A stretch of DNA of 64,000 nucleotides from Mobula hypostoma (lineage: Eukaryota), in assembly GCF_963921235.1 (NCBI RefSeq), contig NC_086097.1, positions 27,220,001 to 27,284,000 of the forward strand. Reading direction: 5' to 3'. Within the stretch, counting starts at the first letter, position 1; each line of letters opens with the position of its first letter. Of the stretch, positions 650-54,360 are shown piece after piece. Position numbers and translations under genes: made by a program. Under the pieces are notes generated by a model. It saw only the letters and a program-made list of their open reading frames with translations. It did not search any database and was not told where the DNA came from.

Positions 650-680
650 GCTGACCAGCTGACTGAAGAACAGATTGCTG
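650..680 (+). CDS. calm1: Calmodulin coding exon 2 (ADQLTEEQIA + first base of E)
   Basis: ttttttccttgcAG acceptor at 648-649, 31-nt exon GCTGACCAGCTGACTGAAGAACAGATTGCTG, GTGAGT donor at 681. Matches the canonical vertebrate calmodulin exon structure; ATG-only exon 1 is not in the window. Confidence 0.97.
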
Positions 681-2269
681 GTGAGTAGTTTATATCTCTG
701 GAGTTTGGCTGGGCTTGTATGCAAGCAGAAATATCACACTTTTGTGGCATTCTGTTTGCTGTATGTGTGAAGTTAATGATTATAAGTGATATATCAAACA
801 CAATTGTGATTAGGGATCTAGGATTTGGACTCTTGATTGTTAACCTTCATTTTCCACCAAAGTACACATGGCCAGGCAAAAAAAACTGTCTAACCTTGTA
901 ACTAGTCTTTTTCAGTATGACTACATGGCTGTTTGCGATACATTGATACTGGATTTGCTTAGAACTAACATATAGTAGAGCTAGTCTGAGAACTAACAAA
1001 TCGAATTGCTTGTATGAATATCTAGATTTTTAGCATATTGAGCCTATGAAGTTTTAATGTCTTGAGGAATACTGGGATGGAATTAAAGCTTTTTAAACAA
1101 AATTTGGGCTAAGGTAGCCATATTAGAATTGAAATTGAGTGTGGACTGGTGTGGAATGTAAATGTGGTGCAATAGATGTTCTAGTGTTTAGAGACCTTGT
1201 ACCCATGCCCACTATAGCATGTGCAGGAAGTCTATTCTGGATTATGCTTCAAGTTTTGTTGTCTCTAATGGAGTTTACATATTGCCTGGGACTAGTAATT
1301 TGAAGCTACCTGTAAGCATCATTATTCGATTTGGTTTAGATGTGTATCACAAATTGCTCTGTAATTTTGGTTTTAATATATATGTAAGCGGTGTTTAAGC
1401 CATCCAAGTGCATATGTCAACTTTCTCCCCATGATGTGGCCATCTTGCTTCAGCCTGACATGCTGTTCCAGCATTTTGTGTGCTTTTGGATTTCCAGCAT
1501 GTAGAATTTCTAGTGTTTGTGATTTGCTTCAGTAAAGGGGTTAATCTAGGTCCATCGATGCACTCAGTTGATGTAGTGTATGATGCATGACAATGGGTTC
1601 TGACAGCACTGACCAGATAGTTCCAGAAAGTTCAGAGGCAGTCAAATAATTTGCTCAGGTTAAGGTCAGTCATACTTCTCATGAAAAGGTCCATGGGATG
1701 TCCTGTTGGGTTGTTGCAAAAAAAAAACAACCTTGCTGCATTTGTGTATTCATTATATTGGCTGCAAAGTAGTTGCCAAAGGCAAGTTTGCAGAATTATT
1801 GATTTGTTCTGTTGCAAAGATATTTTTCTTTGAATTAAATCAATGTAGCCTACATTATTTCTGTTTCAAATGTGGATCTTAAAAAAGAAAGTCCATGTAT
1901 CCATTTAAAGCATCCTTGCATTTGGACAAGTTTGAGTGATTAGTAATTTTAGTAAAAGGTGAGAAAGGGAAGTGATGTTTGAGTGGTTTGAATTTGCTGA
2001 TGCACTGATTTAGCTACTGACACTGAGTGCCATGGTTCTGGGTTTAGAGTTCTTGGATATTTGCACATTCTCCTATGCCCTCGTGGTTTTCCTGATTGCC
2101 CCACACACAATGCTGGAGGAACTCAGCAGATCAGACAGCACTGATGGGAGTGGAATTAAAGAGCTAATGTTTTGGACTGTGTCCCTCTGTTCTGAATTTC
2201 CTGTCATAGAAAAGTACAGCAAAGAATTAGGCCCTTTGGCATCCAGACAATGGCCCTCATACCCCTTCT

Positions 2270-2675
2270 GTTCACGTATCTATCCAAACTTAAATGTTGC
2301 AGTCAAAATCACTTGAGTTGGCAGCTCGTTCCACATTCTGAGACACTTTTCCCTTGTGTTCCCCTTGGACATTTCACCTTTAGTCCATGACTTCTAGTTG
2401 TTGTCTCACCCAACCTCAGTAGTGGGGGGGAGGGGAGGGGCAGGAGAAGCTGCTTGTATTTACTTTTGTCTATACATCTCATAATTTTGTATACCTCTAT
2501 CAAGTCTGCTTTTAATCTTCTATGTTTGAGGGAGTAAGTCTCTAACCTATTCAACATTTCCTTATAACTCAAGTCATCCAGTCCCAGCAACATCCTTGTA
2601 AATTTTCTCTCTACTTCAATCTTATTTACATCTTTCCTGTAGGTGGATGACCAAAACTGCACACAGTACTCCAGT
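2270..2675 (-). mobile_element. CR1-type LINE 3' fragment (decayed)
   Basis: Minus-strand translation LEYCVQFWS..YRKDVNKIE.ERKFTRML..LSYKEMLNRL..YSL..RRLKADLIEVYKIM is the typical CR1 ORF2 C-terminus. Confidence 0.85.
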
Positions 2676-2812
2676 GTCTGCATGTCTCTTGTGCTTATGG
2701 TTTCCTTAGTGCTCATATTTCTGCCATACATCAAACATCTGCTTTGATAACAACACACATAAAAGTGGCTGGTGAACGCAGCAGGCCAGGCAGCATCTCT
2801 AGGAAGAGGTAC

Positions 2813-2848
2813 AGTCGACGTTTCAGGCCGAGACCCTTCGTCAGGACT
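2813..2848 (-). ncRNA. Minimal type I hammerhead ribozyme motif (intact core)
   Basis: Minus strand reads AGTC-CTGACGA-AGG(GTCTCGG)CCT-GAAAC-GTC-GACT: helix I AGTC/GACT, CUGANGA box, helix II, GAAA box, palindromic ACGU in place of helix III, GUC cleavage triplet. Confidence 0.8.
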
Positions 2849-3096
2849 AACTGAAGGAAGAGTGAGTAAGGGATTTGAAAGTGGGAGGAGGAGATCCAAA
2901 ATGATAGAAGACAGGAGGGGGAGGGATGGAGCCAAGAGCTGGACAGGTGATAGGCAAAAGGGATAAGAGAGGATCATGGGTATCACCTGTCCAGCTCTTG
3001 GCTCCATCCCTCCCCCTCCTGTCTTCTCCTATCATTTTGGATCTCTCCCCCCCCCCCCCCCAACTTTCAAATCCCTTACTCACTCTTCCTTCAGTT

Positions 3097-3132
3097 AGTC
3101 CTGACGATGGGTCTCGGCCTGAAACGTCGACT
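3097..3132 (+). ncRNA. Minimal hammerhead ribozyme motif, sense to calmodulin pre-mRNA
   Basis: AGTC-CTGACGA-TGG(GTCTCGG)CCT-GAAAC-GTC-GACT. Core boxes intact; first helix II pair mismatched (T3108). Predicted cleavage after 3128. Confidence 0.7.
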
Positions 3133-4141
3133 GCACCTCTTCCTAGAGATGCTGCCTGGCCTGCTGCGTTCACCAGCAACTTTTATGTGTTGCTTGAATT
3201 TCCAGCATCTGCAGAATTCCTGTTATCTGCTTGATAAGCTGGCTACCTTTTGATCAATGCAGGTGTATTAGAATCTGGAGTTCATGAATATGTAAAAAAA
3301 TTTTTTAAAGAAGGTTCAAGGTAACATGGTAGTTGATGGTCTGTGAGGACTGTGGCTGAAAGGGTCTTGTTTACATACTGCTTTCTCTGATGGACAGTAT
3401 GTATAGCCTAGTCTAAACTAGATTGAATGGATCTAATTGCCTGAGGGGAAGCCAAACAGTTTCATTGTAACTGTATAATGACAATAAAGATCATTCAATT
3501 CAATATTAACTGTGCATGTTATTTGATCATCTTCACTTTTTGGTCTTGAACAATGGAATTAACTGCTAAATTAGTGAGTTATGCAGGCAAAATTGAGTTA
3601 CTTTGAGGCTCTGCTGCCTTGTAAAGTGTTAAGTGACCTGGTACTTCCATGAAAATGCAGTAAATGCCTAAAAGGAATGATGGTCCATGGTAGTAAATGA
3701 TAATAGTTGTGTTCTTGTGAATGAGAACTTGAAATACAAGATCTTTTGATGGTTTTAATGCCTGATAACTTGTGATAGTATTATTTAATTTACAGAATTA
3801 TGTAACATGACCATAATTGTGACCTGAATGGTAAACTCATAATTTCTCCTACTACTTGTGTTTAAGAATGAATCTAAAGGTTGTCAAGTACTCAGGTTCT
3901 GAGTTCGGTTGCAAGCCTGATGTTGGCCCATCAACCAGATTTAAGTCGTATCATTGCAACAGGGAGTATCATATTGAAGTGTAAATGCCAAGAGTGGTGG
4001 TCAGTTTTCTTCCCTGTTGGAAGAATAGATTAGTATCAATTTAAATATATCCTAAATTTTGGATGTTAAAGTAGTCATCAAGTGCAATTAGTTTTGAATT
4101 AAATATTTTGAAGTGTAGAAAACTGCGTGTAGTTCATTTGA

Positions 4142-4336
<195 letters not shown>

Positions 4337-5239
4337 TGAGACTGCATTTGCCTTGCAATTATTCTACTTAAATGCTTATGTTATCCAAACCTAGCATGCT
4401 TTAAATGCCAGTTATTGGTGTGCTGATCATCAATGTTTAGCTGTGATTTTTTTTCAGTGCAATGTTTTATTGGGAAAATCTTGCATTATGCAGTTAAGAA
4501 CATTTAGCATAAGACTTGGTGACTTTAAAGTTTTTTCTCATTAAGATTGAAGTAACAAGTTCTTGTACCATTTGTGCGGAAGTTAACTGAAAGTCATGCC
4601 ATTAATCTTTCAAGTAATTTACTGTTCTGATGCACTTGTCTTCACTGCAATTGGCATTGACTTTTTTAGTGAAGGTTCTTTTTTAAAGATTTGAACTTTG
4701 TTTTTGTTATTTACCTGACACACAGCTGATCACAGCATTCTTTGGCCTTGTGGGATTGACTGTGGGGAATTTGCTTTCGCAGAGAAAACAGTGTGCCCAT
4801 CTGATTTTTTTTTTTCCCCCTCTCTGCCTGTGCAGTACTTCAGTTGAGCTGCCTAGGCTTACAGCATTGACAAATAGTGTGCATTCCGTGTTTTGGGGAA
4901 GGAACTTATTTTTGTGCAGGTGTAACAGGAGTATTCCGTCAGACCGTTTTGAGTCTGCTCTGCCTTAAAGTTGTAGGGTAAAAGATGTTAAGATTCATGC
5001 CCATGTTCCCTCAATGAGCATAATCAGTTTGAAGGAAATGACTGAGCTTCCAAAGCTGCCCAAAGTAATACAACATCTAAAACATTGACGTTGATCAGAT
5101 TTACCGTTTACCAATTAAATTTGCGATTAATTAAATGTATTGTAATGCAAATTGTATTTTGATAGTACAATAGAGAAGGCTGGTTAAGATGCCAGTAACT
5201 AAATCTGAGAGTTAGTATTAGAGCTATAGTTTTTAAAAA

Positions 5240-5400
5240 TGCAAACACGAGGACATTTGCAGATGCTGGAATTTCAAGCAAGACATAAAAATTGGTGAAC
5301 GCAGCAGGCCAAGCAGCATCTATAGGAAGAGGTACAGTTGACATTTTGGGCTGAGACCCTTCGTCAGGACCCACTGAAAGATGAGATAGTAAGAGATTTG
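5240..5400 (-). mobile_element. Penelope-like 3' fragment with degenerate hammerhead
   Basis: Same repeat as 2751-3224. Minus strand CTGACGA-AGGGTCTCAGCCC-AAAATGTC, with the GAAA box mutated. Confidence 0.75.
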
Positions 5401-6859
5401 AGAATCCGGAAAAATATGCAAATGGCACAATATATTTAGGGTTGACAGTACAGGTCAGTGACTTTCTGAGGCTTGCATTTGGCAATAGACCACCTATTGG
5501 GGTTAATGACCTGAAAAGCTTTTCTGCACAGATGCTGCCCGGACATGTACTTTGTGTATAATTTTTCTTCTTTCTTCACAGCAATTTGGTTGGGTGGGGG
5601 TGTTGAGGGAAACTGGGGATTTTATGGTGAAAGTTAAAGCTTCAAAGGCAAAGGTGTGTTCAAACTTGCATTGGTCAATAACTTCATTTGATCTAGACTT
5701 GTACAAATTCTTCAGTGAGTGGGGGTTAAACTCAAATGACAATGACAATCAATGGGTGGTTCTGACTGGAGGGCAAGATTTAATTAGCAATTGAAAAGGT
5801 AATTGAGTTGAAATTTGTGCTTCATAGATGCTGCCTGACCTAACATTTTGTTGTTTTAGTTAGCTTAAGGTCTTTTAAAAGTACTTGTATTGAGTGGATG
5901 CACAGTTAAATTAGGTCATTTCATTTTTTTTGATTATTAGTTTCTAAACTTAGTGCATTCAACAGGAACAATTTAGTGTGGAGGAAGTGGTATCAATTTT
6001 AATTGGCAGTTGCATATAATAGAGAAGAAATGACACATTGGGCAGATATGCTCAGACATTGGATTTCTAACATGGACAATGAAAGTCATTGTTTATATTT
6101 AACAGCTGTCTACTTGGCTTGTAATTAGTAAAATCTTCCCAGAATACAATTAAAGACAGTGCCAATGCTGACTAGTATCTGCCCCTTATCAATTGTCCAA
6201 CAGTGTGGTGTTTTATTGAATGCAGGATCAATTGGAGAAGAATTCTTGGTATTCTAATATCAATAAGTCTTGAGTTTAGGTTGGTAATCTCTGCAGTATG
6301 TGTATGTTCTCATTTATGAATTTCATCCAAGTGCTATAGACATCTGGAAAAGAGCAGCCTTGGTCTGCTTTTTCCAGTTTAGCTTCTACAGGTAGGAGGG
6401 GCATGTTTCTATCAAGTGGCTTGTTTCTGCCTAAATAAAAAGCATTGGTAGATGTTTTTCCTAACTGAGTCAGTAGGTTTTGGCAAGTCCTGAGGGAAAC
6501 ATGATTAACCAGGCTAGGGTTGCTGTTGCTGTCCTTGTTTAATGTGCTGTTTTTAGGATTTTAAACTAGACCTAATGTGTTCAGTAGATAAGATTTTCGT
6601 GTGCAAAATTGGTGACTTGTTTCCCATATGTGCATTTCAGAGCTGTACTCACTGGCTGTAGAATGCTTTAGGTCATTGATAGTCAAGAAATTTACTGCAA
6701 AAGCTTCAGTTAAGCCTAACATTTGTCACAGTATTCACTTGTGACAGGTCATCGAGCCATAAGTATGATGGCTTTGCAATCTGTTTCTCCTAATTTCCCA
6801 GTAATGTTATTACTGCTGCATTGTCATTGATTCTATTCCCCACTACACTAACGGCAATT

Positions 6860-7030
6860 TACTTCAGTGAACTAATCTGCTAGACTTGGAGATGTGGGAG
6901 GAAACCACATCACCCAAAGGAAATCCATGTGGTTACAGGAGAAGGTGCAAACCTAAACAACATGAATAAGGTCTTGATAGAAATCATGTTACTGGAGGTG
7001 AGGCAACATCTCTACCAGCTGCAACAGGAT
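6860..7030 (-). mobile_element. V-SINE/HE1-like SINE (decayed)
   Basis: TGTGGGAGGAAACCAC...GGAAATCCATGTGGTTACAGGAGAAGGTGCAAAC is the reverse complement of the V-domain core. Confidence 0.65.
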
Positions 7031-8347
7031 TAATAAATTTAATTGTCACTGGCTGAGTGAGGGCAAATTTGGGTGTAGCTATGGAAAAATTGGTTTTGAA
7101 TTTACTCTCGGTAGCTCACCGCTGGGTGTACTGAAGCAGTAAGAAGTAAGCAGTAAGTTTAATTGACCTGAAACAATTTTGAGACCTGCTCTTGTTAGAA
7201 GGTTGAATTTTTTTTTACAAAAGCATGAAGATGTATGAAGACCATTGAAGATAAAAGTTGGACTGTTTCCTTTTGATTCTCTGGTTCACTTCACCCTTTC
7301 CCAAGTAATTTTCAAGCAACAGCATCTTTGGTTATACTTGCTGCTTGTACAGGATTGGTGGCATTTCTACACAGCAGCTGTATGATCTGCACAAGCCCAG
7401 GTCATGAATTTGAGTCCTACCTCAATATTTGATCTCTTCACTATTTTGGAAAATTTGTATTAATTTTCCTCGTGCTGTACAACTGCAAAATAACAAATTT
7501 CTTTTCGAATGGTGAGCGTAAAACTGATTCTGATTCAGTTTTGAGCTTGTTGCTGGGATGTGAAAGTTTTGGAATAACCCAATGGTGCACTTGGGATGTT
7601 TACAATCAGTGCAAGCTTACATGTTGTCTTTCCAAATGGGAAAAGGATAATTAGTTCAGATCCTGCTAACTGCACTGTATCCTGGTTAATAAGGTGAAAG
7701 TTGTGCTGTAAGGTACAGTTGAAATGAGAGCAATGAAAACTATTATAGAAGCTTAATTAACTGTCAGCTTTCTTTCTCATTAACTTGGTGTCATCCTGAA
7801 CCCATCTAGCTGGATAATTTCAGTAAGATCTATTAATATCTTAATGAGATTGGCTCACAGCTTTAATTAGGTTAACAGATACTGTATGGGGTCACATCCT
7901 GATTTAGAATACTAAGTTGGTAGCTTTGGGCAATGTTTCATTGTGCCCAACCAGCATTTTAATTCCTACACAATGGAGAAAGTAGTTGCTTGTAAATATT
8001 ATTTAACTTTGGCATCTTATCTTTCATGGACTCTTTAAAACATGATCTCAGTATTTTCATTTTTTTATTTGCACAATCTGCCGCCTTCACGTTGGTTGTT
8101 TATCAGTCTGTTTAGGAATCCTTTTTTGTAAATTTAGGAATCCTTTTTTGTAAATTTTATTATTTTCCTCTAAGTGCCTGTGAGATGAATCTCGGTAGTA
8201 TATGGTTCCTATTTATGTACTTCAATAGCAATTTTTACTTTGATTTTGTGTTATAAACCATCTTGCCATGATTGAAGTTTTTTTTTCTGTCCCAGATACA
8301 GCAAACTGACTAGTCCAACCTGCCAACACTAATTTATTCTCCATTAG

Positions 8348-8515
<168 letters not shown>

Positions 8516-8595
8516 TAGTAGGAGGGATGTGGACTGCTGGTATAATATACATTGTAATCATTCGAAGGGTCTAATCCTATTGGGTGAATATTTCA

Positions 8596-10170
8596 TAAGA
8601 CATAAGAGTGGAATTAGGCCATTTGACTCATTGAGTCTGCTGTGCTATTTCATCATTCCTCAGCCCCAATCTCCTGCCTTCTCCTTGTATTCCTTCGTGC
8701 TCTGACTAATCAAGAATCTATCAACCTCTGCCTTAAGTACACCCAATGACCTGGACTCATCAGCTGCCTGTGGCAAAGAATTCCACAGATTCATCATCCT
8801 CTGGTTGAATAAGTTCCTCATCTCTGTTCTGAAAAGATGTCCCTCTATTCTGAGGTTCTCTGGTTTTAAACTCCCACCATAGGAAATAACCTCTCCATAT
8901 CCACTATCTTGGCCTTTCACCATTTGATTCAATGAGGTTGCCTCAAATTCTTCTGAATTCCAGTGAATACAGGCTCAGAAGCATCAAAGTCTTCATAAGA
9001 CAAGCCATTTAAATCTGGAATCATATTCGTGAACTTCCTTTGAGCCCTCTCCAGTTTCAGTACAACCTTTCGAAGATGAGGGACCAAAAAGTGCTCACAA
9101 TATCCAGCAAGTCCTCACCAGTGCTTCATGAAGTCTCCATGTTGCTTTTATAGTAGAGAGCTTGAAGACGACCAGGGATATGGTGCTTAGTCTTTATAAG
9201 GCTCGGCTCTGGTGAGGCCTCACTAAGTACTGTGAACAGTTTTGGGCTTCTGTCTAAGAAGAGATGTGCTGGCATTGGAGAAGGTCCCAAAGCAGTTCAC
9301 AAGAATGATTCTGGGAATGAAAGGGTTATCATATGAGGAAAGTTTGGCTCTTGGACTGTACATTGGAATTTAGAAGGATGGGGGGTTTCATTGAAACTTT
9401 TGACCGTTGAAAGGCATGGAGAGAGTAGGTGTGGAAAGGATGTTTCCCCATGGTGGGAGAGTCTCGGAAGAGAAGGCACAGCCTCAGAATAGAGGGATGT
9501 CCATATAAAACAGATGCAGAGAAATTTCTTTAGCTACAGGGTGGTGAATTTGTTATCACAGGCAGCTGTAGAGGCCAGGTCATTGAGTGTATTTAAGATG
9601 GAGATAGGTTTTTGATTTGGCACAGCATCAAAGGTTATGGGGGGGAAGGCTGGTGAATGGGGTTGAGGAGGGGAAAAAGGATCAGCCATGATTGAATGGT
9701 GGAGCAAAACTTCCTCTTTTGGTTGAGTATATTCTGTGCCTTCCAATTTGCTGCTGGAAATTTCGGCCATTGATGTTCCACTGTCATCCCTGTCAATGTT
9801 CTTTTCAAATCAGTTTTGGCCAACTCGTCCCTCTTTAATTCCCTTTACTCCACTGTAATGCTGATACATCTGACTTTAGTAGCTTCTCAAAATTCAGGGT
9901 GATTTTGTTCATATTATGATTTTCTCATAAGGGTTCTCTAAACTTAAGCTCCAATCCATTTCAGATCATTGCACAATACCCAATCCAGGATATCTTATCC
10001 CCTAGTGGGCTCAACCATGAGCTGCTCTAAAAAGCCATCTTGTAGGCATTCTAAAAACTCCCCCTCTTGGAAATCCAGTACCAGCCTAATTTTCCCAATA
10101 TTGAAATCCCTCATGACTTTTGTGACATTGTCATTTTGCCATGCAACTGTTGCAGTTTGACCCATCAAGG
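8596..10170. mobile_element. Compound CR1 LINE fragments in intron 4 (minus 3' end 8596-9150; plus 3' end 9160-9705; minus endonuclease region 9720-10170)
   Basis: CATAAGACATAAGA tail. Minus ORFs FRTEMRNLFNQRMMNLWNSLPQ and RDFN..EFLECLQDGFLEQLMVEPTRG; plus-strand CR1 C-terminal motifs. Confidence 0.8.
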
Positions 10171-10609
10171 TCTTGTCTCCTTTCAGGTATATTTCAGATG
10201 GATATATGGATTGTGGGCCAAATAGCCTGTTCCTGTGCTGTATTATACAACACAGAATTGGACCTTTTGGCACAACTCTGCAAATTAGAAATAAAAGATC
10301 TTAATTCACGAACATTGAAGTGTTGTCCTGAATGACACAGGTTTTGTTGCTTAAAGTAAAACTGTCAGTAATGGTCACTTAACTGCCATCACTAATTAAA
10401 ATATTGCTCATTGCTTTGACCACTTATCAAAGGTCATTAAATGCTATATTGCTGTTTCTAAGTACTTCCTGACCTGTTCCCAATTGCTCTACTGACCTTC
10501 AAATTTGATTGCAAATTGGGTTGAATTCCTTGTAAGAGCAGATATTTAAATTGGAGTCCTGGGCTTTTTTGATGGGAAAATGCAAAGGGAGTAATGTGGC
10601 TGCAAGACA

Positions 10610-10812
10610 GCATGGCACTTTGCACAATGTAATTTCAGCTCAGCATCTGAGTTCAGTTCTGTAAGAAATGTGTATGTCCTCCCCAAGTGCGCCGGTTTCC
10701 GCCCATAGTCCAAAGATGGAGCTGTGGGTTAATTGGACTTTGGTGGTTGGGTTGGGGTCAAATAGGGGTTGCTTGGCTGTAAGGGCCTACACTGTTGTAT
10801 CATTAAATAAAT
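10610..10812 (+). mobile_element. V-SINE-like SINE (decayed)
   Basis: CCGGTTTCCGCCCATAGTCCAAAGATG...GGTTAATTGG core and TAAATAAAT tail. Confidence 0.55.
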
Positions 10813-11189
10813 GAACATGCAGTTAGATTGCAAGGCTTTATCTACACTTTAAAAGTGCTTTTTAAAGACCAAAGAGATGATTGTGCAAGCTGGCCACTCT
10901 TCACTGCACATACATTGCTCATCTGTGCAGAGTTAGGAGCACAAAGTTTGAGTGCATATGATCTCACCTTTTTGCTCAGGCTCTCCTTCCTCCCCACCAA
11001 AATTCACAATTTTACAGGAGCACATCAAGTGTTCTTCCCAGCTGCATCACTGTACAGGAATTGTGAAACATAGCTGCAAGTACTGCTGAGACGATGGAGT
11101 TCTCTGATCCATCAGATTTATCAGGGCCCTTGGCATTGTCAATGATCCTTCCCATCTATTCAATGATCTTTGATCCTCTACCAAGTGGA

Positions 11190-11400
11190 TCTATCTGTGG
11201 AATGCTCTGCCTCAGAAGGCAGTGGAGGCCAATTCTCTGGATGCTTTCAAGAAAGTTAGAGCTCTTAATGATAGCGGAGTCAAGGGATATGGGGAGAAGG
11301 CAGGAACGGGGTACTGATTGTGGATGATCAGCCATGATCACTGAATGGCGATGCTGGCTTGAAGGGCTGAATGGCCTACTGCATCTATTGTCTACTGTCT
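11190..11400 (+). mobile_element. CR1 LINE 3' end
   Basis: CTGTGGAATGCTCTGCCTCAGAAGGCAGTGGAGGCC...GATCAGCCATGATC..GAAGGGCTGAATGGCCTACT and a TCTATTGTCTACTGTC tail. Confidence 0.75.
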
Positions 11401-11618
11401 ACCATCAGGCAGGATGTACTGTAGCATTAGGACAAGAACTGTTAGAATGGGAAGTAGCTGCTTCCCCCAGGTCTTAAGACTATAGTGCCCATTATTTGTT
11501 AATTTACTAGTAGTACTACTTGTGTGTTGCTTGGTCTAGAGGAGCATTATTTCATTTGGCAGTATACATGCATGGTTGAATGATAGTAACCTCAATTGAA
11601 CTCTTCAGGACTTGCTGA

Positions 11619-11810
<192 letters not shown>

Positions 11811-12108
11811 TAGAAACCAAACTGAAAATGGAACCAAGAAGCTTGATGTCTTGGTATCAAAATGAAACATCCCTATGACATGCCTGTCATTGTGAAGCTA
11901 CTGAAATGGGAAAATGCTGTAAAACAATTGTGGTTAATGACTGGTGCAGAAACCCTTCAGTATTTCAGTTAAGGTTTTTTAAAGTTTGATTTACAGGAGT
12001 TGTATGCCAATCAAATCTGGAAGTTAGAAGAAATGGCAAAGGAATATTATATTTTCCATTTCCTCTACTTTTTTCTGGAAGTATTGGCCATTGGATAGAC
12101 TATACGTA

Positions 12109-13309
12109 CAGTGTGCAAAAGTCTTGGGCTCCCTAGATTTTTTAATATAAATTGTTAGATGCTTTGTTTTTTGCAATAGTGTTCTGAGACAGAGGCCTAC
12201 TCGCCTGCCACAGCAAACTACACAGCAATAGGCTGCTGACAGAATCCTTTGGCAGCAATCCAAAGGAAGGTGCTCGGCACTGAAACTTGTTCACTTGCGG
12301 ATTCAATGTGTCAGTCTACCTCAAGGCTTTAATTAGCGAAATGGATTTGAACAGTGGCCTGTCCCTGTCTCAAAGTTTCTTTGCATTGAGGCCATCCAAG
12401 TTGCACTTGGTTCCCAGAATCTTCTCAGACAGCAGAGCTGGATCCACCTAATGATCTCCAAACTGTAAATCTCAGGCCCTAACTCTTAACAGTCCCAGGT
12501 ACATGTTTAAGGTGAAAACAGCTGTAAAAGTAAAAAGAATATTTTTGTGCTATCTGGAAGATGTGGACCGAGGGAGCTTTGTACACTAGCACCACCTTGA
12601 CTGGAAAAAGGACTGGGGTGCTGAACAGTGGCAGCAAGTGTTCGGGAATGATGAATCAAAAGTTTCATTTTTTGGCATAAACAGGAGGCAATTTGTGTAT
12701 TGGTGAGTGGTATGTGGATGAGTATCTGCAGCCAACAGTGAAGCATGGCAGGTTTTTTGTAGTTTGGGGCTGCATTTCTGCAAATGGAGTTGGTGCTCTG
12801 GTCAGAATTAATGGAATCCTCAGTGCTGAGAAGTAAAAGCAGATTCTCGCCCAATTAGGAAGGCATCTGGTCCCAATTTCATTCTGCTGCAGGACCCCAA
12901 CTTGGCCAAGGTCATAAGGATCTATCTTCAGTGAAAAGAAAAGGAGCGGTGCAACATATGGTATGGTCCCCACAAGAGCCTTGGTCTCAACATCATTGAG
13001 GCTGTCTGGGATTACCTGGAGAGACAGAAGCAAGTGGGACAACCCTGCAGAAGAACTGCGGCAAGTTCTCCAAGATGCTTGGATAACCTGCCAGCCATTT
13101 TTAAAAATTAAATGTGTATGAATGTATGTATTATTTAGTTGTGTGTATATGTGTGTGTGTGTGTGTGTATATCTCTCACAACTGAGAAGAATTGATATAG
13201 TTTAAAGGCAGAGGGTAGTCTGTTTTTTGGTACTTTTCATTCCCTTATTTTTGAAAGCATCTTGGCATTACAATTTTTTACATGTGCCCAAGACTTCTGC
13301 ATAGTACTG
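12109..13309 (+). mobile_element. Decayed Tc1/mariner DNA transposon in intron 5
   Basis: TA at 12107-12108; left TIR CAGTGTGCAAAAGTCTTGGGC and right TIR GCCCAAGACTTCTGCATAGTACTG. Broken transposase motifs WQQVFGNDESK, LQPTVKHG, VWGCISANGVGALVRINGIL and LNIIEAVWDYL. Confidence 0.88.
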
Positions 13310-15572
13310 CATGCTTATTTTCAGTTTGTTTTATGGATATTTTCTAGGTTTAATGTTAAAATTGATAGTGTCCTGTTAATGCCACTGGGATTGCTTTAAA
13401 CTTTATACAAACAGGCTGGGAGAATGGCTGAACCTACCTAATAAGTGGCTACACACTGGGCCATACTGCTTGTAGTGGTGCTTAATATGCTATCTGGTGT
13501 AGATTATAAAGCAACAGGTAGCTATGGAGGAATTTGACAAATTAATATATTTTTGCTACATTTTTATTTCCATGCATTTGTGAAACGTGCACTTTATAAA
13601 GCTGCATGATGTTTCACTTTCCACTCTATAACTGGAAAGTGTTTTTGGCTCTTGCTTAGATGGTCTTCTATAATGAGCTAGACAAGGTTCCAAGTTTACC
13701 CAGTCCATTGTAATGGTCAGCTTTAGCTGCTGGTCTCAATTTACACCATGGATCACTTTTGTAGATTAAACTGTCTGGGATTTAAATAAGTCCAATTGGA
13801 CAGTGAGCATATGAATGTTTAAAAAAAAAAGATGGCTGTTGTGGAACCACAAAACAATGTATTCATTTGCCTGATTCAGAATCAAAGAACTTGCTGTTTA
13901 GGTTTTGCATATTACTTTGCAAAGCATTGACATAAAACGGGGAGGGCTCCTAATTTCACTTGGAGTGCTGTCTAAGCCTTGCCAGCTGAGATTGTCCAGT
14001 TAGCTTGTTGTCCATCCATTTTCCATGGCAAGTTTCCTTCTATTTACAGCTTTTGAACTTGATACTACTTTGAGAAAGTTAACTATTGTAAAACTGGTGC
14101 AGAGATTTCCCAAATGTAATGGTGTTCCATCTCCAGAATTTAATTTTCTTGGTCTCCATTGTCCACACTTAAAGCATTGAGCCGTCTAACTGATCGTATG
14201 CATAGGTCTTGATTTGGTCAATTGTAGTTGTATTGATGCTCTTTGCTGTAATTACCTTGTGGTGTGAAATCTCATTTCTGTGTAAAGTTATTCAATAATT
14301 TGCCCTTGCACACTTGTGAAGCCCATGCAGGTTATGTATGCCAAAGTTTAAATCAAGTGGCCATTTTAATGAATGGCATGATAGAGCCTGTAAAAATTCC
14401 AAATGCTTGAGATTGGAAGCAGTACATTTATGATGCCAGGCTAGAGACAGTAGGATTGGTGCCTTTTCTGGAATAGTTGTTTGAGATATTGCCTGCTTCT
14501 TGACTAGATTCCTTCCTTTTCTACTTGTGCCTAGCTTCTGCGTTTAAAGAAAAACAATTTTGACATGTTCAGTCACAACATTTCGGCATTTACACAGTCC
14601 AGAGCAGAATGTCAAGAACCAGTATGTAAACCAGGCGTCTGTTGCAGATGATGGGTATAATTATATGAAGCAGATGCTGTGCTAATCAGATAGGAAACAA
14701 ACTCAAGACTTGTGCTGAGTCAGAATGTTGACAATTTAAAGATCATAGGGTTTGCAGTAAATTTTGTTTTTGAATTGATCTTGTTTTGCTGACTGCTTGT
14801 GGGTGATGTGGCTTGCGTTGTGTTTAATTCTCATCCTAGATTCTTCTAAATGCAAGGAGTTGCTTTATGGGATTTGGGAAGCTTGTGAGCAGTGTGTTGT
14901 ATACAATTTAAATTCAAATCCATCAGTATAGTTGGTCCTGGTTTTTTGAGGTTGAATTCAATTTTAAACTAGTCTGTGTGTCAGTCTGACGCTTCTAGAT
15001 CAGGTTAGACCTTCACCCGTTAAAAATAAATAATTTGGGGCAGAAATGGTGGAGCAGAATGGTTGAAGAAAGGTTTCTCTGGATTACCACTGTTCCTACT
15101 TGACCTCTTTGCAGTATACAGTATTACCACATGTAACTGAGCGAGGTACCTTCAAGTTGGTCACACTGAACATGACGGTATTGGGTCAGTGATGCAGAAT
15201 AATGAACAGGGCAACTGGCTGCTGTTTATTGGCTCTATGCTAAATGAGAGATTATTTTGTTGCTTTGAGGCAATTGCTTGTCCTTTGAAATGATAGTCAT
15301 TTACATAATTACCTTGACAGTGGTGATAATATTTTCAAATCTTAGTGCTTGAAGTTCTTCTGCTCCTTTTACTGCAATTGGTTATGTTCTAGCTTTCAAT
15401 TCAGAAGTATTGCAGGCTATTCCAAATTTGCAACAGTCTGTTGCATTGAAATGTGTGTTACACTGAGTCTGGGTATATTAGATCTATTTGAAGCTGTGCG
15501 TGCAGACATGTCTGAATTATTACTGATATTTTCAAAACAAACCAGTTCATCCTTGTCTGTTTCCCTCCACAG

Positions 15573-15601
15573 AATTCGTACAGATGATGACTGCAAAATG
15601 A
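15573..15601 (+). CDS. calm1: Calmodulin terminal coding exon 6 (EFVQMMTAK*)
   Basis: ttccctccacAG acceptor and TGA at 15599-15601. Exons 2-6 total 447 nt; with an upstream ATG this gives 149 codons plus stop, matching canonical vertebrate calmodulin. The paralogue call (calm1) rests on recalled 3'UTR similarity, not on the protein. Confidence 0.97.
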
Positions 15602-16314
15602 AGACTTTTACCTTTCCCCTTCCTAGAAAAGTTGAAATCTTTTACTTACCTCTTGCAAAATGTTCATTTATTCATTCTGTTTCTGTATAGCAAAAGTTAC
15701 TGAATGTCAAAAAAATAAAACCTGTCCACAAACTCTGCATGTAAAATGATCAGTGGTCCTGTCCCCAAAGATCTTCAAGCCATGCATCAGTAAAACTTGT
15801 ACTACCTTAAAAACAAAGCACTTGGACTCTATGAAGTTCCATGCTAATAACTACACTGTTTGGGCTGGCCAGTTTTTCATGCATGCAGCTTGACAGTTGA
15901 GCACAGCCTGGCTCTTAATTCCACTTTATGTTCTTTGTGGGAATAGCTTAGTTTTTTCCGGTTGTATATTGTACAGGATAATTGTTCCTGAAAAGTTGGT
16001 TAATTTTGTGTGCTACGGCAAACTACAATAGAGGGTTGTAATTGTGTGACGGCCCCTGGAGTGGAATCGTTCTCATACTTAACAGTGTGCTCAAACAATT
16101 ACCAGGACTGAAGATCTTATTTTAAATATTAAAAAAAGGATGGCATGTCTGTATAAAACTTGGTTAAAGTGTCTGCATTGCACTATAGTGAAACGGATGT
16201 CAGGCAATTTACCGTTCACTGAATTTTTAAAATAACCTATGAAAAAGGGGGTGTCTTGAACTCTCATGTTTATCTTCTGTTCTATACCATAACTTGGAGC
16301 AGTCAGATTATATA

Positions 16315-17426
16315 CAGTGCCTTGTAAAAGTATTCAGTCCCCAACTCTTTAATTCACATAAATGAGTATTACAAATGGGGATTTTGATCAATTTCACTGA
16401 GAATTTGTATTTGTGAATTATGCTCTATTTCCCCCACAATAGAGCCCCCAAAAAACAGGGAAAATTGCAAAGCATGGTAAACTAAAAATTTAAAAAAACA
16501 AATGTCAGCACTTCAAAAGTATTCATTCCCTTTTGCTCATACTTAGTTGAACCACCTCTTGCAGCTATTACAGCCACAAGTCTTTTTGATAAGTCTTTGT
16601 TTAGATTTGCACAACATAAAGCAAGATATGCCTGTGCCTTGCAAAATTGCTCAAGCTGTGCTAGGTTAGTTGGGCAGCAGGGGTAGACAACAGTGTTGAG
16701 GTCTTGGCAGAGATGTTGGATCAAGTTAGTTCAGGACTCTGGGGCACTCAGTGATACAATTTTCTAAATTTGCAGCTACTGTGTGGTTCTGGCAATATTC
16801 TTTGGGCTGTTCTGTGGAAACACTACCTTCCTTCCCAATTTAAGCTTTGACAGGCTAGCAGGTTGAGATCAAAAATTTCCACTTCAGTCTCAACTGACCA
16901 CAGATCATCTTCCACATCTTTACAGTATGTTCTAAGTGATGCTGTGGTTTCACATTTTCCCATGTTTTCATGATGGACTGCACTGAGCTCTGAGATACAG
17001 TATGTTCAGTACCTTTGAGATGGTCTTGTACCCTTCCCTAAATTCTCTTATCATTACCCTAACTTATCTTGAATGTTCTTTTGTCTTCATTTTGGTTTGG
17101 TGAAAATTTATAATACTGTTGGACCTTACATGGAGGTATTATGAATTCATTAAAAACAGGTAATCCTCTGATTTTCTACATTAAATTTGGTGAGTTGATA
17201 TGGTAATGTAAAATATTGCATCTAAGGAAAGTTAGCATAGCAGTTACAAAGGGGATGAATACTTTTCAGCCTTAAACATTTTGGTTTTGATTTTTCAGGT
17301 TTTGGAATTAGTTTTGATTTGACATGCACAATGTTTTGTAGATTAGCTCAATCCTATTTAAATATATTTTAAATTTAGAGTAAAATGTGAAAATAGTTGA
17401 GTTCTGAATACTTTTTCAAGGCACTA
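16315..17426 (-). mobile_element. Internally deleted Tc1-like (IR/DR-type) transposon inside the calmodulin 3'UTR
   Basis: TA flanks at 16313-14 and 17427-28. TIRs CAGTGCCTTGTAAAAGTATTCAG / CTGAATACTTTTTCAAGGCACTA (21/23 match); inner repeats AAAAGTATTCAT at 16515 and reverse at 17255. Minus-strand transposase relics MKTKEHS..GYKTISKVLNI (from 17090) and NLAQLEQFCK..KRLVAVIAARGGSTKY. Confidence 0.92.
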
Positions 17427-17514
17427 TACATAGGATTTCAGCACAATGACGACATGGCTGTTCAGCAAATTACAATTATGTTCATTCCAAGTTGTAAATG
17501 CTAGTCTTTTTTCC

Positions 17515-17520
17515 AATAAA
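17515..17520 (+). terminator. AATAAA polyadenylation signal of calmodulin
   Basis: AATAAA within the conserved 3'UTR block, followed by U/GU-rich sequence. A further AATAAA lies at 15714-15719. Confidence 0.7.
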
Positions 17521-20500
17521 AGACCATTAACTTAAGTCTCTTTGGTGCCAAAATTATTTGCTATTAATTATTTGCACAAACTGTACATGACTTCAAATTG
17601 TTGGATTTTCATAATGACCACTGCTTCAACCTAAAACCAGTAAGTAAATATTTGTAATACATGATTTTATTAATAACTTTGGTGGTCTTATTTGCAAAAG
17701 CTGATATGCAGCAAAATCAAACCACATGTAATTTAATGTTGGTATGACCTGATTTAAATTTCTTAAGTTAAATGGTCACTAGTTAATTGCTGCAAATTAT
17801 ACATTCGTACCAAACCAAGCAATTTCCAATTTTTTCTTAAAAAAGGTTCAAGTCTTCCTGCTGTATGGGAAAATTCAAGGTTTTGAAAGCTTAAGTAACA
17901 ATGCTAAACTATGTTGGCTGTTGAATTTGTCATCCTTTCAGGTAACTGCAGAAATGTATACTTTGGCCTATCTCTTTGCACACTGCTATCAAGGGTGTTA
18001 TTTCTTCCTTGACCTGAGGTGTCTTTAATGTTCAAAAGATGAAGAATAGTTATGGAAGTCTGCTGCTAATCAAAAGGAAACTGGAGATGAAACAAAACAA
18101 GGCCTGCTTGCCCCTTCCGTGCTTCCATCCCCATTTGTATCACCTTAAAACCCAAGGTTCTTGATATTTTATAGGGTTGGATTACATTCCTCCCTTCCTC
18201 CCAATTCGGACAGTGCATAGGCCTGGGGGTTCTTGAGGGCAGCTTTGTCCTTACTGGTTGCAGATGTGCAGTTCCAGTCCTGCAAGTACTCATTAGCATT
18301 CTTGAATTTGAACCACAGCCAAGGCCATGATAAACTGGCACTGAACTGTTTATCTAAAGATGTAATTGTTTTTGGGATTGATAATGATGCATCTGAAATA
18401 TTGTAGGCAGGTTGTATGCTGATAGTGCATCTTTCTTGATGCTGTTAGATGTGGAGATGCTCGTTTCTCAAACGTGTTATCAGATGAAATTTAATGTTGC
18501 TATGTTGTAAATATGCAGACCAAACTTGATGCTTTCTGTATTAAAGTTTTAGCAAAAGCAACACCAATAAACTGAGCCAGTAGTGCTATTTGTGAATAGC
18601 ATTGTGAATTTGTCAAATTTTTCCCAGCTTGTCTACAATTAGTACTTTGTACCTTGAGGCAGTGCATTTTCACTCACTAGACCAATGTTCATTGACATTA
18701 CTTTGAAATGCGATTTAACATTTGTAAATTTTTTTTGAAGTGAATGCATAGTCTACATCTAACCTTGACTGAAGTACAAATGATTATGGGGGAAGTGGAA
18801 TGACAATTTCGTTGTTCCAAACAAACGGAAGCTGTTTCTTTTTACGTGTTACTTTGAAATCTGAGGGTGGGGCATTGGTGATGTGATTGCTGAGCCAGCA
18901 CTCACTTGATAAAGCAAAATCTTTAATAAGAATGGAAAAGAAAACTGTCTAGTCATGTTCATAATCAACTAAAACATGAGGCACTTGTTCCTGCTTCTAA
19001 ACATATCTGGGGCAGCTTTGCACCTTTTTTTCATGAGGTACATGGAAAGGAAGGGAGGGTTTGGGCAGATGTGATGGCAACGATTAAGATTATTTTCTGT
19101 TAATGCATTTATATGGGGGGCGGAATATAGGATATGTGCAAGCAAATGGACTGGGAGTTTATTTTTGATGGTTGCTTCAATAGGGTGGGGCTGAAAAACC
19201 CATTGGTTTGGTGTGCTTTATCTTGGTCCTATGTTATATTTAACCTCTATATACCAGCACTATATTCTATCTGCTTGGAGATGGTGGGTACTGTTTGCAC
19301 AGATTATCACTGAATTTTTCATGTTCATGCTACTGGTAAAGCTAGCATTGCCCATACCTAGTTGCCCCTTAACTCAAAATTCAACTGCACCAGTGTCTGG
19401 AATTGTATGGCCAGATTAGGTAAGAGTGCTTGCTATATTAGCAATCCAGTTAGTAAGTATTCGCCATTGCTAGGTAGTCTTCCTTCCTTCCTCCCTCCCT
19501 CCCTCCCACCCATGCTTCCAAGCAGCTGGTGCATATCAATGGCTCTATTTTTGATTTCTATTATCTTCAACTATTACATACTGCTATGGAGATTTAGTGA
19601 TCAATTTTCTTTGGCTACTATCTACAATGAGCGTCAGTTGTGTTTGTGGGCTGCAGAGTTTGCCTAACTCAATGATGGCCTAGTGATTTGGTATATTTAA
19701 AATGGCTATTAGGGTATCAGGTTGTGGGGAGAAGATGGGGAATGAGGTTGATGGATAATAAACTGCCATAGTAAAATGAAGATTTGATGGGCTGAATGGC
19801 CTAATTGTGCTATGTTCTGTCTTATTGCAACCAATGTTAAGCTGCCACCCATTTCCTACTTCAATTTTATTGAACAAACAATGCAGGAATATTACTCCGA
19901 CCTAAGTAGCTCACACATGTTTCCCTTTTGAGCACATAAGCAGTCACTGGAATGATGTGCAGAAGCCATTTGTGCACAAGTTGAGCTGTTTGGAAAGATC
20001 GATTGAACAAATTTTGACACCTTTCCTGATGATATTCAAAATTAATGCACTCCTTTTGAATTGTTTCAGGCAACATCAGATGGCAATTAACTTGTGTAAA
20101 GTATTCACCCAGTCAATCTGGTTTTGCCAATCTGCATTGCAAACTGTTTGGAAATGCCAGCGCATGTTTCAGAATAAACAGTCAAAGTAGGATTTGATGA
20201 CTCCACCTTTGCTGGATGTGGCAAATGTCCATCTCTATCCTGTGGTCATTTGGTTCCTTGCCACCAGTGGGCATGGTGTCTGAAATTTTGTGCCCTTGCA
20301 AATTAATCTTGGTTTGTTTCCAGCTGTCTTTCAATATCAAGGACTTCTGTATTTGAGTTGCCCAATAATCCTAAATTACTTTTCCCATTGGGTTTTCAGG
20401 CTCACATGAGAACTGCAGGTATGGAGGGATATTAGATTCAACTTTATTATCATTGTGCCAAGTACACATGCAAAGTCAATGAAATGCAATTAGCATCTGA

Positions 20501-49293: not shown

Positions 49294-51998
49294 CATAGAA
49301 CCATAGAACCATAGAAACTACAGCACAGAAACAGGCCCTTTGGCCCTTCTTGGCTGTGCCGAACCATTTTCTGCCTAGTCCCACTGACCTGCACACAGAC
49401 CATATCCCTCCATACGCCTCCCATCCATGTATCTGTCCAATTTATTCTTAAATGTTAAAAAAAACCCGCATTTACCACCTCGTCTGGCAGCTCATTCCAT
49501 ACTCCCACCACTCTCTGTGTAAAGAAGCCCCCCCTAATGTTCCCTTTAAACTTTTCCCCCCTCACCCTTAACCCATGTCCTCTAGTTTTTTTCTCCCCTT
49601 GCCTCAGTGGAAAAAGCCTGCTTGCATTCACTCTATCTATACCCTTCATAATTTTATATACCTCTATCAAATCTCCAGTCATTCTTCTACGCTCCAGGGA
49701 ATAAAGTCCCAACCTATTCAACCTTTCTCTGTAACTGAGTTTCTCAAGTCCCAGCAACATCCTTGTAAACCTTCTCTGCACTCTTTCAACCTTATTTATA
49801 TTCTTCCTGTAATTTGGTGACCAAAACTGAACACAATACTCCAGATTCGGCCTCACCAATGCCTTATACAACCTCATCATAACATTCCAGCTCTTATACT
49901 CAATACTACGATTAATAAAGGCCAATGTACCAAAAGCTCTCTTTATGACCCTATCTACCTGTGACGACACTTTTAGGGAATTTTGTATCTGTATTCCCAG
50001 ATTCCTCTGTTCCACTGCACTCCTCAGTGCCTTACCATTAACCCTGTATGTTCTACGTTGGTTTGTCCTTCCAACATGCAATACCTCACACTTGTCAATA
50101 TTAAACTCCATCTGCCATTTTTCAGCCCATTTTTCCAGCTGGTCCAAGTCCCTCTGCAGGCTCTGAAAACCTTCCTCACTGTCTACTACACCTCCAATCT
50201 TTGTATCATCAGCAAACTTGCTGATCCAATTTACCACATTATCATCCAGTTCATTGATATAGATGACAAATAACAATGGACCCAGCCCTGATCCCTGTGG
50301 CACACCACTAGTCACAGGCCTCCACACAGAGAAGCAATTTTCTACCACCACTCTCTGGCTTCTTCCATCGAGCCAATGTCCAATCCAATTTACCACCTCT
50401 CCATGTATACCTAGCGACTGAATTTTCCTAACTAAACTCCCATGCGGGACCTTGTCAAAGGCCTTACTGAAGTCCATGTAGACAATATCCACTGCCTTCC
50501 CTTCATCCACTTTCCTGGTAACCTCCTGGAAAAACTCCAACAGATTGGTCAAACATGACCTACCATGCACAAAGCCATGTTGACTCTCCCTAATAAGCCC
50601 CTGTCTATCCAAATGCTTGTAGATTCTGTCTCTTAGTACTCCCTCCAATAACTTACCTACTACTGACGTTAAACGCACCGGCCTACAATTTCCCGGATTA
50701 CTTTTCGATCCTTTTTTAAACAACGGAACAACATGAGCCACTCTCCAATCCTCCGGCACTTCACCCGTAGACAGCGACATTTTAAATATTTCTGCCAGGG
50801 CCCCCGCAATTTCAACACTAGTCTCCTTCAAGCCCGAGGGAACACCCTGTCAGGTCCCGGGGATTTATCCACTTTAATTTTCCTCAAGACAGCAAGCACC
50901 TCTTCCTTTTCAATCTGTACAGTTGCCATGGTCTCACTACTTGATTCCCTCAATTCCATAGATTTCATGTCAGCTTCCTTAGTAAATACAGACGCAAAAA
51001 ACCTATTTAAGATCTCCCCCATTTCCTTTGGTTCTGCACAAAGCCGACCACTCTGATCTTCAAGAGGACCAATTTTATCCCTTACAATCCTTTTGCTCTT
51101 AATATACTTGTAAAAGCTCTTTGGATTATCCTTCACTTTGACTGCCAAGGCAACTTCATGTCTTCTTTTTGCCCTCCTGATTTCTTTCTTAAGTATTTTC
51201 TTGCACTTCTTATACTCCTCAAGCACCTGATTTACCCCCTGTTTCCTATACATGTCATACAACTCCCTCTTCTTCTTTATCAGAGTTGCAATATCCCTTG
51301 AGAACCAAGGTTCCTTATTCCTATTCAATTTGCCTTTAATCCTGACAGGAACATACAAACTCTGCACTCTCAAAATTTCCCCTTTGAAGGCTTCCCACCT
51401 ACCAATCACATCTTTGCCAGAGAACAACCTGTCCCAATCCACGCTTTTTAGATCCTTTCTCATTTCTTCAAATTTGGCCTTCTTCCAGTTCAGAACCTCA
51501 ACCCTAGGACCAGATCTATCCTTGTCCATGATCAAATCGAAACTAATGGCGTTATGATCACTGGAACCAAAGTGCTCCCCTACACAGACTTCCGTCACTT
51601 GCCCTAATTCGTTTCCTAACAGGAGATCCAATATTGCATCCCCTCTAGTTGGTCCCTCTATATACTGATTTAGAAAACTTTCCTGAACACATTTTACAAA
51701 CTCTAAACCATCTAGACCCCTAACAGTATGGGAGTCCCAACCAATGTATGGAAAATTAAAATCCCCTACCACCACAACTTTATGTTTCTTGCAGTTGTCT
51801 GCTACCCCTCTGCAGATTTGCTCTTCCAAGTCTCGTTGACTATTGGGTGGTCTGTAATACAATCCCACTAATGTGGCCATACCTTTCCTGTTTCTCAGCT
51901 CCACCCATAAGGACTCAGTAGATAAGCCCTCTAATCTGTCCTGCCTGAGCACTGCTGTAACATTTTCCCTAACAAGCAATGCTACTCCCCCACCTTTC
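49294..51998 (-). mobile_element. Young 5'-truncated CR1 (HER1-like) LINE with near-intact ORF2 (APE endonuclease + reverse transcriptase)
   Basis: ORFs 50828-52000 (GGGVALLV, GDFNFP, PTRGDAILDL, SSDH) and 49455-50831 (YMDFSKAFDKVPH, PQGSGLGPLLF, SKFADDTK) joined by one frameshift; (TTCTATGG)n 3' tail; candidate TSD ATTAC at 49289-93 and 51999-52003. Confidence 0.95.
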
Positions 51999-52003
51999 AT
52001 TAC

Positions 52004-54360
52004 AATAAGATAAGGAACACATTAAAATGACAATAAATGTAAGCGCACAAGGTAGCTTATTTACATTGGTTGATTGTATGTCCATAAAGTGACGCCAGAT
52101 GCCGGAGTCTCAGTACATCAGGTGACTGACAGGAAATGACAAAGTGATGGTGGAGGGGGGTGTGGAGGATGGGTTAGTGGATGGAGGTGTCGATCAGCCT
52201 CACTGCTTGGGGAAGGTAACTGGTTTTGAGTCTGGTGGTCCTGGTGTGGATGCTAGGTAGCCTCCTCCGCTATGGGTGTGGACAAACAACCCATGAATAG
52301 AGCGGGTGGGATCCTTCATGATAATGCTTGCTTTTTCCCGACCCCTCTCTGTACACACGTCCTTGACGGTGGGTAGGCTTTGCTGGTGATGCACTGAGCG
52401 GCTTTGACTAGCTTTGTGGGGCCTTCCTGCCCACTGCAGTGCGGTTTCCGTACGACGCAGTGATGCAGCACGTAGGGCTGTTCTCCACTGCGCATCTGTA
52501 GAATTTCATGAGTATTGATGTTCATAGTCCAGCTCTCTTTAGCCTCCTCAGAAAGCAGAGGTGCTGGTGAGCTTTCTCGACTGCCTAGGATGCGTTCCGG
52601 GACCATGAGAGATTGTGTGTGATGTGCACTCCCAGGAGTTTGAAAATCCTCGCAGTTTCCACTGCTGTGCCACCGACGTAAAGAGGGGTGTGAGCGGTGT
52701 GAGTTCTCCCGAAGTCGATAACCACCTCCTTTGTCTTGTTGATATTGAGGGAGAGGTTATTTGCCTGGCACCAGACCTCGAGCTCTTCCACCTCCTCTCT
52801 ACAGGCCGTCTCATCATTGTTGGTGAGACAACGACGTCATCAGCAAACTGAATTATGTGATTACTCAGGAGTCTGGCAATGCTGTCGCGTGTCAGCAGCG
52901 TGTACGGCAATGGGGTCAGCACAGCCCTGGGGGTGGGGGGAAGCCACATTAATGATGATGGGGAGGGAGGAGCAGTTGTTCCTCCTGACTCCTGTTGGTT
53001 AGGAAGTTCAATGCCCAGTTTCACAGTGGTGTACTTAGACTGAGGAGTAGGAGTTTGTTCACCACGTTCTGTGGGACAATGGCGTTGAATGCGTTCTGAC
53101 ATAAGTGTCCTTGTTTTCTGGGTGTGTTCAGGCTATGGCATCTGTTCTACAGCGGTTCTGTCGGTAAGCATGTTTGTGAGTGTCCAGTGTGACAGGAATG
53201 GAATTTTCATTGTGTGCCATTACCAGCCAATCGAAGCACTTCAGAATGATTGGCGTCCGTGCCAATGTGTGGTAGTCGCTTAGCTCTGAAGGTGCAGAGT
53301 TCCTTCGTACATTGATGATGGCCGCTACCTTGAAGCGTGTGGGGACAGCAGCCTGGATGAGTGAAGTTCTGAAGGTGTCTGAGAAGACATCAGTGAGCTG
53401 GTGAGCACAGTCCCTGAGTACTCAGCCTGTGATGTACCCAACATCAATGATCCTCACCACCCAGGCCATGCTCTCTTCTCGCTGCTGCCATCAGGAAGGT
53501 GCTACAGGAATCTCGGGACCCACATCACCGGGTTCAGGAACAGTTATTACCCCTCATCCACCAGGCTCTTGAACCAGAGGGGATAACTTCACTTGGCTTC
53601 ACTCGCCCATTCCTGAACTGGACTCACTTTCAAGGACTCTTCATCTCATGTTCTTGATATTTATTGTCTGTTGATTTTTTACTGTCTTTTTGTTCTTTTT
53701 GTATTTGCACAGTTTGTAGTTTTATTGTGCACATTGGTTGTTTGTCTATCCTGTTGGGCGTGGTCTTTTATTGACTCTACCGTGTTTCTTGTAATTACTG
53801 TGAATGCCCAGAAGAAAATGAATCTTGGGATTGTGTTTGGTGACTTATATGTACATTGGTAATAAATGTATTTTGAACTTTGAACTTTGGGATGTTGTCT
53901 GGCTGGGCATCTGTATGGGGGCTGACACTGCAGAGTCCTTCTCACAGTTACTGGCAGTGGTTGCTCACCCCGGGGGGGTGGGGATAAACGTTGTCTGGAG
54001 CATCAGGGAGGGAGGTGTCACTGTATAGCCAAAGCTGTTTCCCCTGCATATTCAGTAATGCCCTTGATGTCCGGTCACATACACCGGGGATCGTTATTAG
54101 ACGGTGTTCCTGAATTTTTTTCTTTATAGGCACTCTTTGCTCTTTTGGTGCTTAAGATGAGGTTTCTCGTGATGTCTCCAGACTTGAAGACAACATCCCG
54201 GGCTTTTGGCAGGGCCCACGCCTTTGCGTTCAGCCAGAGCTTCTGATTGGACTGTGAGATACCAATGTCACCTACGCCTTTACAGATGTAGCTCTTGATC
54301 AATGAGGCATGTTCCTCGAGGTTTGTGTTTTCTCTTTTTGTGGTGGCCTCCTGGAGCACC
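52004..54360 (-). mobile_element. Decayed Rex1/Babar LINE (RT and C-terminus), with a plus-strand Rex1 3' piece nested at ~53440-53890
   Basis: Minus ORFs LTPLPYTLLTRD..IIQFADD, WCQANNLSLNINKTKEVVIDF..FKLLGVHITHNLSW and NQKLWLNAK. Confidence 0.82.

Follow-up and report, generated by a model that had tools for sequence, protein, structure and literature searches.

A decayed Tc1 transposon in the 3′ UTR of a ray calmodulin gene, probably carried as a passenger in the calmodulin mRNA

The calmodulin gene and its 3′ UTR

The window, a 64 kb stretch of the Mobula hypostoma genome (64,000 nucleotides; contig NC_086097.1, positions 27,220,001 to 27,284,000), carries coding exons 2–6 of a calmodulin gene with their introns on the plus strand (650..15601). 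The gene was recognised from calmodulin peptides in five plus-strand exons of a six-frame translation, which also places the stop codon, TGA, at 15599–15601, while the last exon begins at approximately 15573, its acceptor being read from the sequence. We take the gene to be the CALM1 paralogue and the flanks of the insertion to be collinear with the mammalian CALM1 UTR. Searches for an orthologous UTR gave 0 matches for a right-flank motif among metagenome contigs, and no orthologous sequence for two flank motifs, on both strands, in the full-text literature. Following the stop codon, the 3′ UTR extends for 711 nt (15602..16312, plus strand; CpG observed/expected 0.25) up to a 1,112 bp transposon at 16315–17426, which lies antisense to the gene within the last calmodulin exon.

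Within and beyond this exon AATAAA occurs at 15714, 17515 and 18566, and ATTAAA at 16128, 17149, 17180 and 18540. The most likely main poly(A) signal is the AATAAA at 17515..17520 (plus strand), which has TGTA upstream and a T-rich downstream region (T fraction 0.42, versus 0.26 at 15714). The proximal plus-strand AATAAA (15714..15719), 113 nt past the stop codon, likewise has TGTA upstream, followed by a weak T-rich downstream context, and could end a short isoform that lacks the element; it may be ancestral or may postdate the insertion, as a means of producing such a short mRNA. ATTAAA at 18540 and AATAAA at 18566 (18540..18571, plus strand) may serve as distal signals of a longer isoform. 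Between the element's end and the AATAAA at 17515 lie 86 nt, close to the 90 nt or so given by the initial annotation, and the UTR up to this signal is 1,919 nt long, or 805 nt once the element is subtracted, a 2.4-fold difference that bears out the same annotation's view of a UTR more than doubled in length. The ATTAAA hexamers said to be gained with the element do exist, at 17149 and 17180, but they stand at the level that base composition predicts (2 seen versus 1.8 expected, P 0.55), and a meaningful gain was rejected.

A 7-mer at 17483..17489 (plus strand) is presumably a miR-1/206 seed match. Regulation of Calm1 3′ UTRs by miR-1 is described in PMC11204236, the identity of that site with the one at 17483 being putative; a chicken UTR length of 117 nt given there is ambiguous and was set aside. 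A literature search, with most subscription papers outside its reach, returned no report of the present insertion. If the signal at 17515 corresponds to the Calm1-S signal of mouse, the insert would occupy the part common to both 3′ UTR isoforms and add 1.1 kb to each. The window gene resembles mouse Calm1 in having several candidate poly(A) signals and, since the alternative isoforms Calm1-S and Calm1-L have neuronal roles (PMC7491327), an insert in their shared part is of some interest.

The element has company. Intron 5 of the calmodulin gene contains a second, different Tc1 relic with short terminal repeats (12109–13310), its transposase remnant being on the plus strand at 12605–13097 (E 3e-14); with 54 of 154 non-degenerate sites changed (35%), it stands further from the reference set. 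The 64 kb contains no Tc1 match beyond these two, and the intron-5 relic indicates that such insertions are not rare in the calmodulin gene. Elsewhere in the window, long minus-strand frames of 397 and 464 aa at 49458–52021 presumably belong to a CR1-type LINE, as its endonuclease and reverse transcriptase, and an Rfam scan of the window gave 0 matches. An insertion in so constrained a UTR had been called unusual, and it is only moderately so, given the intron-5 relic and the tendency of transposon pieces, seldom found in mRNAs, to favour 3′ UTRs where they are present (PMC3636048). Unlike the transposon-derived 3′ UTR pieces of that source, the present element is a DNA transposon preserved nearly whole, both arms included, and it precedes the probable main poly(A) signal of a strongly conserved gene.

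Anatomy, affinity and age of the element

The element is flanked by TA target-site duplications at 16313..16314 and 17427..17428, exactly where the initial annotation had set the limits of a TA-flanked element with terminal inverted repeats. Its left inverted repeat (16315..16536, minus strand) is the element's 3′ arm and contains an outer direct repeat at 16315–16349 and an inner one at 16513–16536; its right inverted repeat (17245..17426, minus strand) is the 5′ arm, where the inner direct repeat lies at 17245–17268 and the outer one at 17392–17426. The outer arm pair spans 42 nt at 83% complementarity and the inner pair 19 nt at 95%; an 11-nt core is identical in all four direct repeats, and the whole left and right arms agree at 128 of 181 aligned bases. 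The arms are thus of the IR/DR type, approximately 180–220 nt long, and not short. TA duplications, arms of about 200 nt with outer and inner direct repeats, and a Tc1-like transposase together are the features of a Tc1/DD34E element of IR/DR type, and the Passport end primer (PMC2651795) agrees by eye with the left end at 19 of 21 positions and with the right end at 18 of 21. The element is a dead IR/DR member of Tc1, Passport-like by its ends. Since transposase sequence is present, identity as a MITE was rejected. None of 72,556 plasmids searched matched the element. One metagenome contig (L001:826–1435) covers the 3′ portion of a related IR/DR Tc1, including its end, with 377 of 524 aligned bases identical, and is probably vertebrate host DNA in that sample.

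The antisense transposase relic that had been noted is present on the minus strand, from an ATG at about 17090 to 16539. Comparison with 63 near-full-length proteins (of 194) resolves it into three collinear pieces: a frameshifted N-terminal DNA-binding part, approximately aa 1–63, at 16906..17090, placed by alignment to Tc1 proteins; an island around the first catalytic Asp, aa 149–162, at 16862..16903; and the C-terminal third, approximately aa 228–339, at 16539..16856, which contains stops and has 38–47% identity in tblastn. Deletions of about 85 and 65 codons flank the island, so that some 150 codons are missing in two deletions. The element has accordingly lost about 450 bp, and adding these back gives about 1.6 kb, the typical length of related families (table in PMC9777934). 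The first Asp of the catalytic triad has become Val, the second Asp is deleted and Glu has become Gln. Stops, frameshifts, two deletions and the absence of a D-D-E triad set the relic apart from an active Tc1.

With the C-terminal fragment as query, 73 proteins matched at E up to 0.001; DDE_3 was found in all eight matches checked, and six of eight looked-up clusters of matches bear fish names. The nearest intact proteins have 46–58% identity over the relic's two longer segments, and the best-scoring intact transposases begin like Passport/Eagle proteins. A tree of 43 rows, whose 42 reference rows came from one seeded search and include no row named Sleeping Beauty or Frog Prince, places the relic, on a long branch, beside proteins of Polypterus, Oreochromis and Xenopus. 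The element is put down as putatively of Passport/Eagle type, its subfamily unsure because of that branch. It shares with Passport the TA duplication, the IR/DR arms and the end sequence, and differs from it in being dead, with its 450 bp deletion, lost triad and distance from intact proteins; the word 'shark' is absent from the Passport paper (PMC2651795). A Pfam scan of six relic fragments found no transposase family, and a word-index search with the read-through C-terminal frame scored 0 of 209 candidates, both being expected of so decayed a relic. A 339 aa protein filed as 'IS630 family transposase [Escherichia coli]' (P0141) groups with fish Tc1 transposases, and the record looks like contamination.

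The extent of decay can be approached in several ways. Residues conserved in the family are kept at 54 of 88 positions, which fits approximately 20% neutral change (range about 15–25%); non-degenerate sites are changed at 32 of 154 overall and at 21 of 131 (16%) without a frameshift-scrambled patch; and the comparison of whole arms gives 16% per copy, equal to the coding part. Decay is estimated at about 16–21%, without evident constraint. Against an expectation of 35 CpG, the element has 0, and this, together with the kept residues and the decay, led us to reject a young or active element. The earlier description of a decayed and old insertion holds, in view of the two deletions, the lost triad and the missing CpG.

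Probable transcription through the element and its occurrence among organisms

A search with 202 sampled words from 15574–17560 listed 24 runs, 20 of which contain the query stretch or part of it. The four runs of organism A (X1–X4, one study, guessed to be RNA, 86–170 million letters) hold 1.00 of the 202 words, and four runs guessed to be DNA (2,243–2,847 million letters) hold 0.73–0.86. The RNA labels of X1–X4 and X9–X12 are a tool's guess, X13–X16 being unlabelled, and the contigs of the runs attest presence, with level, strand, ends and continuity with the spliced exons outside their scope. A complete share in X1–X4 implies, if these runs are RNA, that RNA exists which continues past 15714 with the element unspliced; on that reading at least some RNA of organism A probably includes the element in unspliced form. 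That the mRNA carries the element had been proposed by the initial annotation, and in these probable RNA contigs it does lie end to end.

Only 7% of the words lie before 15745. An exclusive transcript end at the AATAAA at 15714, which the same annotation had named as the case fatal to its proposal, is rejected if X1–X4 are RNA, since 100% of the words are present. On the sense strand, the right arm of the element has donor-like and acceptor-like motifs (GT 17160 to AG 17299), which, if used, would define a 140-nt intron far past the stop codon that could trigger nonsense-mediated decay. This candidate cryptic intron overlaps 170 of the 1,957 words, and its obligatory splicing is likewise rejected if X1–X4 are RNA, the unspliced form being present there. 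A weaker form of both proposals holds that the main mRNA ends at 15714 or splices 17160–17299, leaving the element to a minor long or read-through RNA. This is unlikely: the proximal AATAAA is canonical, with its upstream TGTA so soon after the stop codon, yet its downstream context is weak, and while the contigs carry no levels, the shares stay steady in the smallest runs (0.62 in all four of organism C and 1.00 in all four of organism A), unlike the drop that a rare isoform might produce. The splice-like motifs of the right arm and the alternative poly(A) sites used by mouse Calm1 (PMC7491327) are further points in favour of this weaker form.

The word shares also bear on the distribution of the insertion. 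Words confined to the flanks number 815 of 1,957 (0.416), whereas the shares are 0.62–0.68 in the four runs of organism B and 0.62 in each of four unlabelled runs of organism C (21–60 million letters); if the words can be treated as a random sample, the excess of these eight runs over 0.416 has a P of 8e-10 or less. That organism C gives a constant 0.62 at every depth points to divergence, and not depth, as what limits the share. So decayed a copy should have 31-mers specific to this locus, and organisms B and C would then most likely share the insertion. From the word shares, the insertion appears to be common to organisms A, B and C, with one study behind each. The three labels differ by about 1.2–1.5% over the stretch, if all of it is present, which would place the insertion long before their split. 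Another study supplies a fifth run of organism C (X24), whose share is 0.00, as are those of X21–X23, and such values are no proof of absence. Four metatranscriptome runs (X17–X20) have shares of 0.30, 0.16, 0.10 and 0.06, which would suit a filled site that has diverged as well as an empty one, and they were left out of the argument.

Predicted fold and the likely fate of the insertion

The pairing of the terminal repeats suggested by the initial annotation recurs in the predicted fold. The arm duplex has an energy of −103.3 kcal/mol, against −52.8 ± 5.1 for 100 shuffles, and folding of the entire UTR gives 28 outer pairs and 19 inner ones at probability 0.92, the long-range helices ranging over 0.77–0.92. 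Interruptions occur among the outer stem's 28 pairs, and the longest unbroken helix is 19 bp, or 12 bp with Watson-Crick pairs only. The insert is thus predicted to be looped out, bringing the UTR flanks together, with predicted unpaired probabilities of 0.77 for the miR-1 seed match at 17483 and 0.49 for the signal at 17515. Among about 20 motifs tried, two 7-mers in the element, 16317–16323 and 16634–16640, presumably match the miR-124 seed; the first lies in the terminal repeat, buried in the predicted stem (unpaired 0.0), and the second has a value of 0.36.

Duplexes of the kind formed by inverted Alu pairs (IRAlu) run to approximately 30 bp or more, and a 19-bp helix is short for Dicer or PKR; the unbroken helix here falls short of the long, near-perfect duplex of IRAlu. 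The arms, 71% identical with many gaps, set the element apart from inverted Alu pairs in the same way. Inverted Alu pairs (PMC3636048) are nevertheless alike in making an intramolecular inverted-repeat fold-back within a 3′ UTR. Such pairs are substrates of ADAR and Staufen.

A short duplex also weakens the proposal that antisense transposase sequence in an abundant mRNA acts as a source or target of piRNA or siRNA directed at the Tc1 family. The antisense orientation and the probable transcription would suit such a role, while a divergence of 16–21% from the ancestor should leave a poor match to active or sister copies, and we consider it very improbable.

Whether the repeats have been kept as an RNA stem can be asked of the repeats themselves. 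Over 59 sites the terminal and inner repeats show 11 differences, where 22 are expected at 21% decay (P 0.009 with uncertainty, all columns) and 17 at 16% (P 0.08, the scrambled patch left out); the 59 sites are AT-rich and were chosen after inspection. This is a weak and non-robust hint of selection on the stem. It bears on a reading in which the repeats have been co-opted, selected as an RNA stem that joins the UTR halves or binds ADAR or Staufen and so tunes the stability or location of the mRNA. Beyond the deficit of differences, that reading can call on the arm-duplex energy relative to shuffles, the long-range helices, the 11-nt core identical in all four direct repeats and the retention of the element in three organism labels. 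Folding of this kind is, however, general to inverted-repeat transposons, the unbroken helix is at most 19 bp, the sites were picked after being seen, and the whole-arm decay equals that of the coding part. Moreover, CpG decay spares AT-rich repeats, the arms of an element can be homogenised in the DNA itself, and recognisable ends persist in the intron-5 relic too, at a coding estimate of 35%. Co-option is distinctly unlikely. The same low credence attaches to a self-insulating insertion, whose repeats fold the insert out at the RNA level and so permit fixation, with selection then keeping the repeats.

The reading that we prefer, and regard as likely, is that the element is a fixed and tolerated passenger carried in the calmodulin mRNA, since the analysis brought to light no indication of a function. 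In a common ancestor of organisms A, B and C, a Passport/Eagle-type IR/DR Tc1 would have entered the calmodulin 3′ UTR in antisense orientation, at a TA within an AT run. Later changes would have removed about 450 bp and abolished the three catalytic residues, with decay of about 16–20% and no evident constraint. Its sense strand appears to offer no poly(A) signal or splice that would remove the element from all transcripts, so a pool of calmodulin mRNA would read through it, probably to 17515, with a UTR of approximately 1.9 kb in place of 0.8 kb. The arms probably fold back and loop the insert out, leaving the miR-1 seed match largely unpaired, and this looping-out may have eased fixation. 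The 3′ end in use, the fold in vivo and the neutrality of the insert are what we infer.

The element offers a clean presence/absence lineage marker for a group of related species. It is also an example of a strongly conserved gene, calmodulin, taking up 1.1 kb in its 3′ UTR ahead of what is probably the main poly(A) signal, and it offers a natural experiment on whether such a UTR depends on its spacing or on its motifs alone. Were selection on the stem true, it would point to a route by which inverted-repeat DNA transposons come to be tolerated and then co-opted in mRNAs, and if the self-insulating reading were true, one ray lineage would have acquired a new regulatory handle on calmodulin mRNA.
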